Of a stretch of DNA of 5,474 nt, positions 854-5,474 are shown in pieces. The notes under the pieces were generated by a model. The model saw only the letters and a program-made list of their open reading frames with translations. It searched no databases and was not told where the DNA came from. Positions within the stretch are counted from its first letter, which is position 1. Each line of letters begins with the position of its first letter. The stretch comes from a virus (taxonomy: Duplodnaviria > Heunggongvirae > Uroviricota > Caudoviricetes), in IMG/VR virus record IMGVR_UViG_2698536677_000017; one strand, 5' to 3'. Position numbers and translations under genes: made by a program.

Positions 854-1569
854 TTACTTCACAACCCTCATATTGCTGACATTTGGACGCCAGCTATCCC
901 AGTTAAACGTCACCCATCGACCACCGTTCATGGTCATGCGGTCCATAATCCTCTCACCAAGAAGCGTACTCATTGCGGCATGATTCAGGTTTGTTAACAT
1001 CCCGACACTGCACAGTGATGCTGTCCGGCGATCAATTATCTGGTGCAATACCACCTGCTCGTTTTTCGTCTCCCGCTGAACGCCTATTTCATCCAGGACC
1101 AGCAAATCAACCCCGCAAAGCTCCTGTAAAAATTTTTCCCCGGATTTGCCGTTGTCGTAGCTGTCATGCAACACGCTCATGACGTCAGACACGGTGACGA
1201 TAATCACGCTGCGCCCCTTCACCATCAGCCGGTTGCCCATCGCCGCTGCAAGGTGATTTTTCCCGGTGCCACGGTCATCAGTTCGTCAGCTATGGATTTG
1301 GCCTGGCTCAGCGCGTATTTTTGCCCGTCGTTCTGCACCTGATAATTTGCAAACGAGCATTTGCTGTGCAGAGGCTGGATGCCCGAACGATTCAGGATTT
1401 TTTCCACCCGCAACTGGCGATTCTGGCGGTTAATCTCCTCGCTGCGTTTTCGTCCTTCAGCAAGTTGCCATTCCCGCCACTCCTCCACCGTCCGGTACGG
1501 TGGAACCGACCCCTGTGGTGCAAGTCTGCGAATACGTTCAAGAACCCCAACTGCCGCAATGTTTTTCAT
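854..1569 (-). pseudogene. DnaC-like helicase loader (phage replication protein, YdaV-like), disrupted by a frameshift in the Walker-A region
   Basis: Two overlapping minus-strand ORFs, 1225-1569 (N-terminal, ...NRSGIQPLHSKCSFANYQ...) and 854-1240 (C-terminal, ...VDLLVLDEIGVQ...MLTN...WVTFNWDS...), together cover a DnaC-like protein. The Walker-A core GTGKNHLAAA is encoded around 1238-1270 in the frame of the C-terminal ORF, but the N-terminal ORF reads through it out of frame (MTVAPGKITLQRRWATG then stop). The in-frame text just upstream (RTDDR) does not resemble the expected P-loop lead-in, suggesting an indel. Confidence 0.75.
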
Positions 1570-2560: not shown

Positions 2561-2986
2561 TTAGTGCATCACCACAGCATTCCCTGCCGGGCCGCCGCGA
2601 TTCATCTGGTCATACAAAACAACCGCTGACGCAACAAAATCATCGACATCCTTCACCAGCCGATCCCTCCGTTCGACGATCTCACGGTAATATTCAGAAC
2701 TGTGGCTGCGCATACGGGCCACCAGCAAAGGCGGCATCGCCTTTTCGATCGCCGGTAACAGAGCCTGCATTTTTTTAACAGCATCAGGGGTGTCTTTCTC
2801 TACCCAGCGGAAAATTTTCTGGGTATTACGGGCCAGGGCTTCCGGATGGCTGTCGTCATACAGTTCCGGGAACGTCATTCCCAGCTCGAAATACGCTTTG
2901 GTAATTTTCGCAGCCGGTACTTTTTCGCCGTCCGGATGCGCCCAGACATTCATCGCCATGCGGATGTGTTCATGCTTGATTTTCAT
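2561..2986 (-). CDS. YdaT-like protein (Rac-type early gene; described either as a CII-like regulator or as a putative toxin)
   Basis: 141-aa ORF beginning MKIKHEHI..., ATG start with GGAG 7 nt upstream. Its start overlaps the stop of the upstream Cro-like gene by 4 bp (ATGA). Position (cro-like, then this gene, then O-like, then DnaC-like) matches the Rac ydaS-ydaT-ydaU-ydaV order. Family call is from memory. Confidence 0.65.
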   Translation of the reverse strand: MKIKHEHIRMAMNVWAHPDGEKVPAAKITKAYFELGMTFPELYDDSHPEALARNTQKIFRWVEKDTPDAVKKMQALLPAIEKAMPPLLVARMRSHSSEYYREIVERRDRLVKDVDDFVASAVVLYDQMNRGGPAGNAVVMH

Positions 2987-3285
2987 GAATCAACTCCATC
3001 AGATAAGCATGTACTACAATCACCTTCAGCATGAACTACATGTGTTTGCCCCAAACGAATGCCGCTCGCATACTCAGGCCAAATAAGCTCCCAATCATGG
3101 GGTCGTAGCTCCGCCCTACTTACTTGGCCTTCCGTCGCAGATTCGATCATAAGGGCGCGGGTTGGAGATATAGCTGTTCGTCCAGACGCCATTTGCGATA
3201 AGTAAGATGGCGATACACCAAGTCTGGCCGCGAATTTCTTAGCATCACCAACCCTTAATGATTTAATAAACTCTTTTAATGTCAT
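2983..3285 (-). CDS. Cro-like HTH regulator, YdaS family
   Basis: 100-aa ORF, ATG (complement of 3283-3285) with GAGGAAGG SD just upstream. The motif LGVSPSYLSQMASGRTAISPTRALMIESATEGQVSRAELRPHDW is typical of the YdaS/Cro-like HTH family. First gene transcribed leftward from the divergent operator region. Confidence 0.8.
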   Translation of the reverse strand: MTLKEFIKSLRVGDAKKFAARLGVSPSYLSQMASGRTAISPTRALMIESATEGQVSRAELRPHDWELIWPEYASGIRLGQTHVVHAEGDCSTCLSDGVDS

Positions 3286-3382
3286 ACCTTCCTCGGTTTA
3301 GTGTTTTTTTGCGAGTTTAGTGTTTAATAAACCATTAAGTCAAGTATTTGCTTGTTTAGTGATTACTAAAGATAATTACCAC
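3286..3382. promoter_or_regulatory. Divergent operator/promoter region (OR-like) between the Cro-like gene and the repressor gene
   Basis: Seen in sequence: three copies of the half-site GTTTAGT at 3296, 3315 and 3354. Two sit in palindromic contexts: AGTTTAGT-gttt-AATAAACC (3314-3333) and TTTAGT-gatt-ACTAAA (3355-3370). Candidate rightward promoter: -35 TTGCTT (3348-3353), 17-bp spacer, -10 GATAAT (3371-3376), placing the transcription start at or next to the repressor ATG (3383). Candidate leftward promoter: -35 TTGACT (complement of 3338-3343), -10 TAAACT (complement of 3314-3319), 18-bp spacer. Confidence 0.6.
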
Positions 3383-3754
3383 ATGCAAAAAAAAGAAATT
3401 CGCCGTTTACGTCTCAAGGAGTGGTTTAAAGATAAAACTCTGCCACCCAAAGAGAAGAGCTACCTATCTCAACTAATGAGTGGGAGAGCCTCGTTTGGAG
3501 AAAAGGCTGCCAGAAGAATAGAGCAAACATACGGGATGCCGGAAGGGTATCTGGATGCGGAATACGCAGAACAACCGGGGGTTTCTCCACCACATGCAGG
3601 GTTAACGTCTAATCAACTGGAATTATTGCAGATTTTTTCAGCCTTCCCTGAGGATGAGCAACGCCAGATAATCAGCGAGTTAAAGCAGAAAAAAGAATCA
3701 ATGGAAGATCTCATAGCGAGATGGATTGCGGCGCAAAAATGCCGCCGCGCCTGA
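3383..3754 (+). CDS. Prophage repressor, short HTH protein, DicA/RacR-like (no S24 peptidase domain)
   Basis: ATG at 3383 chosen over the GTG at 3320 given in the ORF track, because the upstream extension would cover the operator/promoter sequences. The N-terminal segment EKSYLSQLMSGRASFGEKAARRIEQTYGMPEGYLD is HTH-like; the C-terminal segment LTSNQLELLQIFSAFPEDEQRQI resembles the DicA C-terminal region as I recall it. No SD precedes the start and the -10 lies 7 nt upstream, so the mRNA is probably leaderless. Confidence 0.75.
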   Translation: MQKKEIRRLRLKEWFKDKTLPPKEKSYLSQLMSGRASFGEKAARRIEQTYGMPEGYLDAEYAEQPGVSPPHAGLTSNQLELLQIFSAFPEDEQRQIISELKQKKESMEDLIARWIAAQKCRRA

Positions 3755-3774
3755 GTTATAAAACCGGAGGAAAC

Positions 3775-3966
3775 ATGAATAGAGCCCTTTCACCAATGGT
3801 TTCTGAATTTGAAACCATTGAACAAGAAAACAGTTACAACGAATGGCTGCGTGCGAAAGTAGCAACGAGCCTTGCAGATCCGCGCCCAGCAATTCCCCAT
3901 GACGAAGTTGAGCGCAGAATGGCAGAACGCTTTGCTAAGATGCGTAAGGAACGGAGCAAGCAGTAA
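3775..3966 (+). CDS. Type II antitoxin, ParD/RelB-like ('stability determinant' type), partner of the downstream ParE-like toxin
   Basis: 63-aa ORF (MNRALSPMVSEFETIEQENSYNEWLRAKVATSLADPRPAIPHDEVERRMAERFAKMRKERSKQ). ATG at 3775 with GGAGG (3766-3770) 4 nt upstream; the upstream ATG at 3721 overlaps the repressor and has no SD. The stop TAA (3964-3966) is 1 nt before the toxin ATG. Small, acidic-to-basic profile and position upstream of the toxin are typical of antitoxins. Confidence 0.7.
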   Translation: MNRALSPMVSEFETIEQENSYNEWLRAKVATSLADPRPAIPHDEVERRMAERFAKMRKERSKQ

Positions 3967-3967
3967 A

Positions 3968-4246
3968 ATGTTACCCGTGTTATGGCTTGAAAGCGCAGAT
4001 ACCGACCTAGATGATATAACTAGTTATATTGCTCGTTTCGACATAGATGCGGCTGAACGCTTATGGCAGCGATTAAGGGGTTGTGTGCTGCCGTTATCCG
4101 AACATCCGTATTTATACCCACCAAGCGACAGAGTACCTGGCTTGCGTGAGATTGTAGCCCACCCTAACTATATAATTCTATACCGCGTAACAACATCAAG
4201 CGTTGAAGTAGTAAACGTGATCCACGCAAGACGCCAGTTTCCCTAA
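3968..4246 (+). CDS. Type II toxin, ParE/RelE superfamily
   Basis: 92-aa ORF (MLPVLWLESADTDLDDITSYIARFDIDAAERLWQRLRGCVLPLSEHPYLYPPSDRVPGLREIVAHPNYIILYRVTTSSVEVVNVIHARRQFP). The pattern W..A..DL..I..YI...D...A, then PG.RE......YII.YRV, then V.VV.V.H.RR at the C-terminus is characteristic of ParE/RelE toxins. ATG at 3968, 1 nt after the antitoxin stop. The ORF-track start at 3872 would overlap the antitoxin and is rejected. Confidence 0.8.
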   Translation: MLPVLWLESADTDLDDITSYIARFDIDAAERLWQRLRGCVLPLSEHPYLYPPSDRVPGLREIVAHPNYIILYRVTTSSVEVVNVIHARRQFP

Positions 4247-4265
4247 CTTTCACTACCAATAGAAA

Positions 4266-4310
4266 CATAACAACCGCAACGACTTTATCAAAAGCGTTGT
4301 GTTTGTTATG
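4266..4310 (+). terminator. Long hairpin downstream of the toxin gene (terminator candidate, or a regulatory palindrome)
   Basis: Seen in sequence: CATAACAACCGCAACG (4266-4281) pairs with CGTTGTGTTTGTTATG (4295-4310) across a 13-nt loop, giving a 16-bp stem with one mismatch and one G-U pair. A T-rich run (GTTTAGTTTTT, 4319-4329) follows, but only after a 9-nt gap, so it is not a textbook intrinsic terminator. Confidence 0.4.
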
Positions 4311-4316
4311 CCCCGC

Positions 4317-4358
4317 GGTTTAGTTTTTACTTGACTTAAGTTTAATGTTTATTAAACT
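4317..4358 (+). promoter_or_regulatory. OL-like operator plus rightward promoter candidate (PL analogue) for the ydfA-like operon
   Basis: Seen in sequence: GGTTTAGT (4317-4324) is identical to the OR copy at 3295-3302. A perfect palindrome AGTTTAAT-gttt-ATTAAACT (4339-4358) closely resembles the OR site at 3314-3333. Promoter candidate: -35 TTGACT (4331-4336), 16-bp spacer, -10 TAAACT (4353-4358), with the -10 inside the palindrome. Confidence 0.5.
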
Positions 4359-4537
4359 AAAAATACCAACCCACCCCGCCCCACAGAACGCAGGGAAATA
4401 CTTCGAGTTACCCGGCAGTGGTCAGGGGTTAAGTAGCCAGCCCGAGGCGTATGAACATGACGGCGGGAACACTTTGTATAACAGCGCAGCAGGTTTTTTG
4501 TTCCGCTACCCCGGCGTTAAGGGGAAATGAGGTCAAC

Positions 4538-4690
4538 ATGGATACGCTCAATCTTGGCAACAACGAATCTCTGGTATGCGGTGTGTTCCCTAACCAGGAC
4601 GGCACCTTCACCGCGATGACGTATACCAAAAGTAAAACGTTTAAAACCGCAGCTGGTGCGCATCGCTGGTTAGCAAGAAACACTGACTGA
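4538..4690 (+). CDS. Small prophage protein, DUF1391 family (YdfA/YdaF-like)
   Basis: 50-aa ORF (MDTLNLGNNESLVCGVFPNQDGTFTAMTYTKSKTFKTAAGAHRWLARNTD). ATG at 4538 with GAGG (4529-4532) 5 nt upstream; the in-frame upstream ATGs at 4451 and 4457 lack an SD. Family recalled from the Qin/Rac small proteins ydfA and ydaF, which sit next to the repressor gene in those prophages. Confidence 0.65.
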   Translation: MDTLNLGNNESLVCGVFPNQDGTFTAMTYTKSKTFKTAAGAHRWLARNTD

Positions 4691-4701
4691 TGAGGTTGAC
4701 G

Positions 4702-5040
4702 ATGGAATTTAAAGATTTACCTCCTTCAATCCAGGAGATTGCAGCACACACACTTCGTCATCGTCTGAACGAACTTGAATTGGAATCGGTAACAAAAAAA
4801 GACACTGATAATATGGCTCGCAATGTGCGCGATGCGTTTACTGGGCTGTTTTCAGATACAGCTTTAAATATCCATGGCACAGAGGATACAGCAAAACAAT
4901 TTGCAGAAAAAGAAGTGGAAGATCCCAGTTCAAAGAGCCAGAAACAGCCAAACAACCATGAAATTAACGAACTGCTTCTGGCAACAGGCTTCATAAATAT
5001 TAACGAATATGAACGCCGTAAAAAAATGTTATCTGATTAA
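4702..5040 (+). CDS. Hypothetical acidic protein, 112 aa, no recognisable family
   Basis: ORF with ATG at 4702 preceded by GAGG (4692-4695) at a 6-nt spacing. An alternative start is the ATG at 4690, which overlaps the stop of the upstream gene as TGATG. No hydrophobic segment and no motif I recognise. Confidence 0.6.
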   Translation: MEFKDLPPSIQEIAAHTLRHRLNELELESVTKKDTDNMARNVRDAFTGLFSDTALNIHGTEDTAKQFAEKEVEDPSSKSQKQPNNHEINELLLATGFININEYERRKKMLSD

Positions 5041-5223
5041 TCCATCAAGATATCTTTTTAGCATCAGCGTTTCTACGTTATTAAAACCATCAGATTTTAA
5101 CATAGCTTCGATTCGCTGATTTAAATTGCCAACTAACTGTTGATACTGAGTAGATGGAAGCATGTGTACCAGCTCCTTGAGAACACAATAACATGCACCA
5201 AGTTTTAACTCCTGCTCTGACAT
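5029..5223 (-). CDS. Hypothetical small protein, 64 aa, convergent to the previous gene
   Basis: Minus-strand ORF (MSEQELKLGACYCVLKELVHMLPSTQYQQLVGNLNQRIEAMLKSDGFNNVETLMLKRYLDGLIR). ATG (complement of 5221-5223) with a strong GGAGGA SD 4 nt upstream. Its 3' end overlaps the 3' end of the plus-strand gene by 12 bp. The upstream in-frame ATG at 5235 in the ORF track lacks an SD. Confidence 0.6.
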   Translation of the reverse strand: MSEQELKLGACYCVLKELVHMLPSTQYQQLVGNLNQRIEAMLKSDGFNNVETLMLKRYLDGLIR

Positions 5224-5474
5224 TTTATCCTCCATTGAGGTTACTGGTTGAGAATGGAGACCTCTCGTGACAGCGTGTGGTCGAGCGCCGGACACGGATA
5301 AGAATCCGGCACTGACAGTTTACTGAAAGGATATTTCCCTGAAAAGTCAGACCATAACGCGAAAGCGTACGGCGAGGTAGCTGGTTCATAGATAGCCTGT
5401 CGTTAAATTTTCGTCGACCGTGCGCTTCCGGTTGTGGCAATCCGCGAAATGGCGCGGCGGTAAGTATGGCGGGG

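Follow-up and report, generated by a model that had tools for sequence, protein, structure and literature searches.

Results and Discussion

The present analysis concerns two small genes in a 5,474-bp stretch of DNA (IMG/VR virus record IMGVR_UViG_2698536677_000017), which is referred to here as the window. These are a DUF1391 gene of 50 amino acids (aa), a YdfA/YdaF homologue, at 4538-4690 and an open reading frame (ORF) of 112 aa at 4702-5040, both on the plus strand; they are followed by a convergent 64-aa ORF at 5029-5223 on the minus strand. The window is the immunity and early region of a lambdoid prophage. Its positions 4250-5474 are 99.9% identical to the chromosome of E. coli ATCC 25922, in which the prophage adjoins potC and carries an exonuclease, an excisionase and an integrase at its end, and positions 3383-4527, from paaR2 through the promoter and leader, are 98.9% identical to DNA of the cryptic prophage CP-933P of E. 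coli O157:H7. Judged by these identities, the window belongs to a CP-933P-like lambdoid E. coli prophage. The genes are arranged in the order paaR2-paaA2-parE2, a promoter of the type of the lambda leftward promoter (PL), and then the DUF1391 gene and the 112-aa gene.

The DUF1391 gene starts with ATG at 4538 behind a Shine-Dalgarno (SD) sequence, GAGG, at 4529-4532 and ends with TGA at 4688-4690. It had been described as DUF1391-like in an initial annotation made from the sequence, and this was confirmed by a full-length match to Pfam PF07151 (E value 1.6e-29; 101.7 bits against a gathering cut-off of 27.3; residues 2-48 on profile positions 1-47/48), together with a match to phrog_751. Longer calls of 77-86 aa, which are common among gene callers, were rejected because related leaders differ by a 10-nucleotide (nt) indel upstream of the block of hairpin and SD, and this indel breaks the longer frame. 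A total of 289 DUF1391 homologues were found, and 17 that were selected and aligned from Escherichia, Salmonella and Cronobacter are 74-94% identical; DUF1391 appears from this alignment to be a narrow and highly conserved family. The gene is the first after the repressor in Qin (ydfA) and in four further loci (L004, L006, L013 and L018), and in Rac and locus L012 it is preceded by a short ydaG-type ORF.

The AlphaFold2 (AF2) model of the DUF1391 protein contains four strands and a C-terminal helix, with a predicted local distance difference test score (pLDDT) of 87.6. Such a predicted fold could suit a small regulator that binds nucleic acid and has a beta-sheet and helix like those of AP2 or YegP, and that would act on the early operon, for example by antitermination or by secondary regulation in prophages without an N gene. 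The position of DUF1391 directly behind the leader in Qin-type, CP-933P-like and related loci agrees with this idea, and the matches of the model in BFVD, none of which was significant, include HNH endonucleases. However, no Pfam AP2 match was obtained, the hhalign comparison with the AP2 domain of AtERF1 gave a probability of only 3.9%, and CP-933P keeps its operon without DUF1391, so that we consider a regulator of this kind very unlikely. The kinship to AP2 and YegP had been suggested by weak structural hints, and the sequence profiles do not support it; sequence and fold searches against the PDB likewise gave no significant match for the DUF1391 protein. In the phage records ON470580 and ON470583, a gene that is probably a ydfA/DUF1391 homologue is called 'head-DNA stabilization protein D'. 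The sole basis that we found for the label of head decoration protein D was a similarity of 19 residues to a lambda-type decoration protein (E value 0.08), and the label is probably an annotation error.

At the junction of the two genes, the sequence TGATG (4688-4692) contains an in-frame ATG at 4690 that shares its A with the DUF1391 stop. The initial annotation had pointed to this overlap and to a better SD-supported ATG at 4702, and both were verified. The SD of the 112-aa gene, GAGG at 4692-4695 on the plus strand, lies directly behind the DUF1391 stop and is followed after 6 nt by ATG 4702; an SD at such spacing is present in 12 of 12 homologous loci. The ORF ends with TAA at 5038-5040. 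In loci with an upstream DUF1391 gene, the junction always reads TGAC TGA TGAGG(T/C)TGAC(G/T) ATG and the ATG at -12 is thus present, while it is missing from loci without DUF1391, namely the Salmonella-type elements, Xenorhabdus, Stx2a phage P13374 and phage Evi. Every homologue compared begins with MEFKDLP behind an SD, whether or not DUF1391 lies upstream. Because the MEFKDLP start and its SD are universal while the -12 ATG is not, the conserved start of the 112-aa gene is, by this comparison, 4702, and the TGATG overlap appears to be incidental, a by-product of the stop and the SD. The co-translation that had been proposed from the overlap therefore needs another footing: the overlapping ATG is not the conserved start, but re-initiation across the 11-nt gap is plausible through proximity to 4702, since the SD of the 112-aa gene directly follows the DUF1391 stop. 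The synteny of DUF1391, 11-nt spacer and MEFKDLP gene is kept in many loci. As a separate observation, the first six codons of the gene (4702-4721, ATGGAATTTAAAGATTTACC) are near-invariant at the nucleotide level across loci L004-L016, and this holds even in the Xenorhabdus and Stx-phage homologues, which are elsewhere just 40-50% identical. It suggests that the mRNA of MEFKDLP genes is under an additional constraint at its 5' end.

The 112-aa protein has an isoelectric point of 5.2, a net charge of about -6 and 21 D+E against 15 K+R residues, so that its earlier description as acidic holds in a mild form. Its first 50 codons (4702-4851, plus strand) encode an N-terminal head domain, predicted as a two-helix hairpin, with the motif MEFKDLP..IQ.IAA..L ... 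AR.VR.AF..L[YF]. The consensus of the head is MEFKDLPxxIQxIAAxTL ... (E)PAKxLARxVRxAFxxLY; in the alignments P7, Q11 and F46 are invariant and L6, A14, L18 and L49 near-invariant, and the window protein conforms to this pattern. In the AF2 model, helices at 8-24 and 32-53 form the hairpin (block-mean pLDDT 76-89) and three helices of lower confidence follow, with a mean of 71.6. When 1.84 billion representatives were searched exhaustively with the profile, head homologues were obtained in 102 clusters at an E value of 0.001 or below. Most of these clusters match positions 1-55 alone, and stand-alone proteins of 50-70 aa are numerous among them; in one the head occurs twice in tandem, and in another it follows a YdfC-like segment as a fusion. 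The 112-aa protein also matches five PHROGs from profile position 1 (2151, 1363, 9419, 6937 and 33007; E values 1.8e-55 to 3.4e-06), and of the 212 positions of the phrog_2151 profile it covers positions 1-101 only. Homologues from a word-indexed search were all from E. coli or Salmonella, are 62-186 aa long and share residues 1-50, after which they run into several unrelated classes of tail. The members of the five PHROGs, among them the 212-aa O157 protein WP_000394548 ('Ybl81') and ORF16 of Stx2a phage P13374, share the head of about 50 residues and are all encoded on the PL side of the early regions of lambdoid phages, but their tails are unrelated past about residue 70. In the Stx2a phages, in contrast to the window, the MEFKDLP gene is found a long way downstream of N, kil, rec and exo and has no DUF1391 partner. 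Of 5426 complete E. coli genomes, 917 (about 17%) contain DNA of the head.

Searches with this protein in Pfam, NCBIfam and PADLOC gave no match. The scans also took in ten relatives with long tails and, one at a time, the 31 sequences of the head alignment, with sub-threshold and inconsistent matches alone, so that no known domain was recognised in the tails. The best Foldseek hits of the AF2 model in the PDB were globins (E value 2.2), and the best match of the head profile hidden Markov model to PDB sequences had an E value of 2.7. By hhalign, no match of the head profile was found to lambda N, Ral, SieB, CIII, Kil, Gam, Ea10, orf60a, orf63 or orf28, or to YdfA, YdfB, YdfC, YdfD, DicB, YdaE, YdaF, YdaG, KilR, RacC or Rac SieB; the probabilities for the lambda early-left proteins and for KilR, DicB and YdfD of Rac and Qin were 0.0-4.0%. 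In the literature on DUF1391, Ybl81 and the WP accessions we found no functional study, and the exo-xis literature concerns other ORFs. No well-characterised family was thus found for the 112-aa protein by remote homology or structure. The statement in the initial annotation that the protein cannot be placed in any family is correct for curated libraries, but not beyond them, as the five PHROGs and the 102 clusters show; the head appears to be an undescribed small domain that defines a clear family without a Pfam or NCBIfam entry. Two side observations concern the YdfC family. One database protein (P0105) carries a YdfC-like segment fused ahead of the MEFKDLP head, and in phage Evi (locus L016, 3260-3908) a 72-aa gene (phrog_1744), which we take to be YdfC-like, directly precedes the MEFKDLP gene. 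These hint at a functional link between the YdfC and MEFKDLP families.

The C-terminal part of the 112-aa gene (4852-5040, plus strand) is specific to the variant; conservation is weak up to about 4909, and from about 4910 on the sequence varies fully. Most O157 and O26 genomes have a match that breaks off at 4844, and a more sensitive alignment extends residual similarity to about 4909. It may be asked from this whether the ORF is a decaying chimera, in which recombination within a longer gene, such as the 212-aa allele, fused the conserved head to meaningless sequence, so that the head alone, or nothing, is functional. Several features agree with such decay. In ATCC 25922, the PGAP/RefSeq annotation covers codons 1-50 alone, as a partial pseudogene 'missing C-terminus'; the tail DNA is found in 152 of the 5426 complete genomes against 917 for the head; the window has its TAA (5038-5040) where several relatives read CAA and continue with QSIKISF, so that its allele is 7 residues shorter; the AF2 confidence is low at residues 55-80; and family members in the databases are often fragments or frameshifted. 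On the other side, tail codons 63-112 differ from the Salmonella-type element L009 at 37 of 138-150 nt without any indel in 46-50 codons, and the rates of nonsynonymous (dN, 0.23-0.25) and synonymous (dS, 0.68-0.76) substitution give a ratio of about 0.33. Integrative elements of the Salmonella type, which are unrelated, carry this tail too, and the identical 112-aa protein is encoded on at least 1000 public contigs. Among the best 80 IMG/VR loci, the tail is identical in 24, differs by a single residue in one and has the 119-aa form in one. For the head, codons 1-50, dN/dS is 0.14-0.44. These values indicate that the tail is coding and that both halves of the ORF are under purifying selection, and the 112-aa ORF is, on this evidence, a real gene; decay is unlikely. 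The pseudogene call presumably stems from the use of the common 212-aa allele as best evidence protein.

The convergent 64-aa ORF shares 12 nt with the 3' end of the 112-aa gene. It matches phrog_4987 (E value 3.1e-49), is annotated in ATCC 25922 as WP_001295058, and its dN/dS of 0.17-0.42 likewise indicates purifying selection; values below 0.45 thus apply to this ORF as well as to the head and the tail of the 112-aa gene. The ORF was found in 26 of 27 viral loci of the window type (112 or 119 aa), and it accompanies the same tail in the Salmonella-type integrative elements L007, L009 and L010, which contain neither DUF1391 nor dicB. A weak, sub-threshold Pfam match to the IraP anti-adaptor (E value 0.06) was noted, as was the fact that the ORF occupies a place comparable to that of the convergent sieB of lambda and Rac.

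When the window was aligned with the O157 locus of the 212-aa type, homology ended at about 4909 and resumed exactly at the start codon of the 64-aa ORF, at 5224. These boundaries therefore delimit a variable cassette of about 4910-5223, which, as far as the alignment tells, comprises roughly 43 codons from the end of the 112-aa gene together with the entire body of the 64-aa ORF. The region beyond it, 5224-5474 (plus strand), is 87.9% identical to the O157 locus, is widely conserved and appears as an untranslated region leading toward dicF, which lies just past the window end. In a survey of tails and partners, which covered 93 gene copies in the loci examined, the convergent partner differed from one type of tail to the next: a 69/73-aa ORF goes with the 212-aa type, one of 66 aa with the 121-aa type, one of 77 aa with the 135-aa type and one of 160/168 aa with the 177-aa type. 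No convergent partner accompanies the 129-aa type or the Stx2a-phage member. The 3' ends of tail gene and partner overlap by 0, 12, 23, 32 or 33 nt, with one gap of 63 nt. As CP-933P has other genes behind the same leader, the segment from the leader to the region upstream of dicF is an exchangeable slot, and the slot after the leader appears to be a recombination hot spot.

The pairing of tails with partners raises the question of whether the variable tail and the convergent ORF are a matched pair, either an effector with its antidote or an antisense pair of a lytic and a lysogenic gene. The tail would then be expressed from PL on induction and the partner from its own promoter in the lysogen, and the overlapping 3' ends would allow mutual antisense control. 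It speaks for such a pair that at least five tail variants each abut or overlap a different convergent small ORF (with the one 63-nt gap), that the cassette is bounded by the point where the head ends and, on the other side, precisely by the start codon of the partner, and that both ORFs are under purifying selection. The conserved N-terminus, the variable C-terminus and the different small neighbour of each variant also resemble a polymorphic toxin/immunity system. However, the partner is convergent, while classical polymorphic toxin systems use co-directional immunity genes, and no toxin domain was found with Pfam or PADLOC. In addition, the Stx2a-phage member and the 129-aa variant do without a partner, our promoter scan found no sigma-70-like promoter upstream of the 64-aa ORF, and homologous recombination in the conserved flanks would explain the co-inheritance equally well. 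We therefore regard a matched pair of this kind as hardly probable; the pairing is explicable by recombination in two conserved flanks, and a functional match is possible. A wider form of the idea, which we rate as quite unlikely, takes the MEFKDLP head as a constant adaptor and the swappable tails, with their own tail-to-tail convergent ORFs, as an unrecognised family of matched two-gene cassettes at a PL-proximal hot spot. These might serve as effector and antidote or as anti-defence and defence, one partner acting in the lytic phase and the other in the lysogen, with antisense cross-control via the 3' overlap.

Upstream of the two genes, operator repeats like those of the lambda left operator and a PL-type promoter occupy 4313-4358 (plus strand). 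The promoter scan placed the -35 element TTGACT at 4331-4336 and the -10 element TAAACT at 4353-4358, with a spacer of 16 nt. The same hexamers are found in the divergent PR-like promoter at 3343-3314 (minus strand), and the two -35 regions are joined by a perfect inverted match of 12 nt, TACTTGACTTAA. The heptamer GTTTAGT occurs once here, at 4318, and three times at the right operator (4 copies against 0.57 expected), and the D1/D2 repeat families to which it belongs cluster solely at 3291-3370 and 4313-4357. In CP-933P, the -35 and -10 elements of PL933P are identical to those of PR933P and three operators are present (Jurenas et al. 2021, PMC8630535), and gfp fusions showed that PL933P is repressed about 100-fold by PaaR2 or YdaS (PMC8630535). 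The window promoter has the same sequence characters, namely hexamers shared with PR and operator repeats of the GTTTAGT type. Because the window DNA is nearly identical to the CP-933P promoter DNA that was studied experimentally, there is good indirect evidence that the DUF1391 and 112-aa genes are the first genes of a repressor-controlled, PL-equivalent operon, as the initial annotation had proposed, and synteny agrees with it. From the same near-identity, PaaR2 and YdaS would be expected to repress the window promoter. The ORFs downstream of PL933P, to which no function could be given in that study (Jurenas et al. 2021, PMC8630535), differ from the two genes of the window.

The promoter is followed by a leader of about 180 nt (4359-4537, plus strand), which contains a hairpin formed by CCCC (4509-4512) and GGGG (4521-4524) beside the SD of the DUF1391 gene. 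The 3' 45 nt of the leader are conserved in Qin and four other loci, and the rest of the leader is of two unrelated types. The leader end at 4501-4540 (GTTCCGCTACCCCGGCGTTAAGGGGAAATGAGGTCAaCATG), with the hairpin, was also seen to be kept in Qin and all related loci. The 181-nt leader was also folded in search of a riboswitch or a put-like element, but it folded no better than shuffled sequences (z 0.78). Ahead of the operator repeats, directly after the parE2 stop, lies an inverted repeat at 4266-4310 with arms of 21 nt, which are 81% complementary, and a loop of 3 nt; it may mark where the paaR2-paaA2-parE2 transcript ends, and it has no T-run behind it.

One of the closest known systems is the dicBF operon of Qin, whose repressors are DicA and DicC and which reads ydfA-ydfB-ydfC-dicF-dicB-ydfD (PMC5069750). 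In the ATCC 25922 locus (L001), DicF was identified at 10315-10366, past the window end (Rfam 76.7 bits; gathering score 48), and dicB is annotated at 10550-10738, followed by a DUF1482 (ydfD-like) gene, the exonuclease, xis and int. The downstream dicF and dicB make the operon a variant of the dicBF operon of Qin. Both begin with a DUF1391 gene, the product of which is in the window about 80% identical to YdfA; they also have in common the 3' end of the leader with its SD, the downstream dicF, dicB and DUF1482 genes and control by a repressor. They differ in that the window has the 112-aa MEFKDLP gene and the convergent 64-aa ORF in place of ydfB and ydfC, whose products are unrelated to the window proteins (hhalign probability below 1% against the family profile), and in that its repressor is of the PaaR2 type, with an inserted PaaA2-ParE2 pair, rather than DicA. 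CP-933P of O157:H7 (Jurenas et al. 2021, PMC8630535) has identical PaaA2 and ParE2 proteins and the same YdaS/YdaT switch genes. Behind the leader, in contrast, it carries a convergent gene for the zinc-binding protein ECs_2282 and ydfC (4146-4806 of locus L019, compared with 4528-5223 of the window). Rac, with racR, ydaG, ydaF, the convergent sieB, kilS and kilR, resembles the window in having DUF1391 (ydaF) near the head of a repressed operon, followed by a convergent gene and then by a division inhibitor. Unlike the window, it has ydaG ahead of ydaF and no annotated MEFKDLP gene, YdaG being unrelated to the 112-aa protein; its convergent gene, sieB, encodes a membrane protein of 162 aa that is unrelated to the 64-aa ORF, and its division inhibitor is KilR, not DicB.

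These comparisons bear on the suggestion of the initial annotation that genes at this position serve host takeover, killing or exclusion, which found no support. The pair would in that case be a module of small proteins made first upon derepression, and its place at the head of the PL operon, adjoining the slot that holds ral, sieB and kil in lambda and Rac, in a hypervariable neighbourhood, is compatible with it. However, dicF and dicB are already present in the operon and supply its kil functions. When the Qin genes ydfABC-ydfD were induced without dicF and dicB, no growth defect or filamentation was seen (PMC5069750). Because the operon without dicF and dicB is not toxic when induced, YdfA, the DUF1391 protein, is not a killer under the Qin conditions, and by analogy the division-blocking kil functions of the operon would reside in DicB and DicF, not in the two genes. 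Moreover, hhalign comparisons with Kil, KilR, DicB, SieB, Ral, CIII and N stayed below 5% probability, PADLOC gave no match, and both proteins are hydrophilic, with no transmembrane-like segments found. We accordingly give a takeover, kil or exclusion role of the pair little likelihood.

Taken together, the region is best read as two PL-proximal early genes of a CP-933P-like prophage, whose products are probably non-lethal accessory proteins that bind other proteins. For regulation, the model is based on homology to the experimentally studied promoter and on synteny. In the lysogen, PaaR2, aided by the operator repeats shared with the right operator, would shut the promoter at 4331-4358. On loss of repression, a single transcript would cover the leader, the DUF1391 gene and the 112-aa gene, and would continue antisense through the 64-aa ORF to dicF, dicB, the DUF1482 gene, the exonuclease, xis and int, so that the pair would be co-expressed on derepression. 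The transcript would yield the DUF1391 mini-protein of the YdfA/YdaF family, with its predicted four beta strands and one helix, and the 112-aa protein, translated from ATG 4702 with its own SD and possibly coupled by re-initiation. In the latter, the head hairpin may act as a constant module for interaction or dimerisation, whose specificity the tail would tune.

Some points weigh against this interpretation. The protein-binding role is suggested by the small size, the helical hairpin shape and the modular tails alone, and Pfam, NCBIfam, PADLOC, the PDB sequence and fold searches (both proteins) and BFVD (DUF1391 only) assigned no function. The Qin toxicity result covers YdfA and not a MEFKDLP protein (PMC5069750). 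Both substitutions seen in the 12-nt spacer that separates 4690 from 4702 leave the residues of the MRLT frame unchanged, and for this reason some minor initiation at 4690 may still occur. The shorter allele of the window and the partial-pseudogene call described above belong here as well.

Other features of the window

The remaining genes of the window belong to the immunity and replication region. On the minus strand lie, by their Pfam matches, genes for a DUF1627 protein (62-832), a helix-turn-helix, O-like replication protein (1576-2538), YdaT (2561-2986) and a YdaS/Cro-like protein (2983-3285). The repressor gene (3383-3754, plus strand) encodes a PaaR2/DicA-like protein, analogous to CI, which was recognised by its match to the transcriptional regulator family phrog_5736 (E value 2.3e-39) and by the neighbouring PaaA2/ParE2 genes in ATCC 25922 and O157:H7. 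It is followed on the same strand by the antitoxin gene paaA2 (3775-3966; Pfam PaaA2, E value 1e-19) and the toxin gene parE2 (3968-4246; Pfam ParE_toxin, E value 1.9e-16), whose products have identical RefSeq WP accessions in ATCC 25922 and the O157:H7 genome. The arrangement paaR2-paaA2-parE2 has been described for CP-933P (PMC8630535).

Several further observations were made in this part of the window. A DnaC/IstB-like ATPase gene at 854-1569 (minus strand) is represented by two overlapping ORFs, 854-1240 and 1225-1569; about 31 bp that are present in ATCC 25922 (L001 5990-6016; gene intact, 747 nt) are missing, and this replication-loader gene looks inactivated in the window copy. Within the O-like gene, positions 2114-2203 contain five iterons of the TCAAC.GTTGA.GGG type with a spacing of 15 bp, which look like a lambda-style origin within the initiator gene. 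The sole match in an Rfam scan of the window, a sub-threshold hit to mir-250, falls on these origin iterons and is spurious. At the ydaS/ydaT junction (2976-2993), the published YdaT operator TTGATTN6AATCAA is present with 0 mismatches (TTGATTTTCATGAATCAA).

Conclusion

The DUF1391 gene and the 112-aa gene are real but ordinary small prophage genes, which will not surprise a phage specialist. The analysis corrects the annotation of the 112-aa ORF, which is a real gene where RefSeq has a partial pseudogene, and defines an unnamed domain family of 50 residues. The region also shows lambdoid prophages swapping a cassette whose two flanks are conserved, one of them being internal to a coding sequence. 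Should the pairs of tail and convergent ORF prove to match in function, prophages, Shiga-toxin phages included, would have here a new hot spot for accessory functions.

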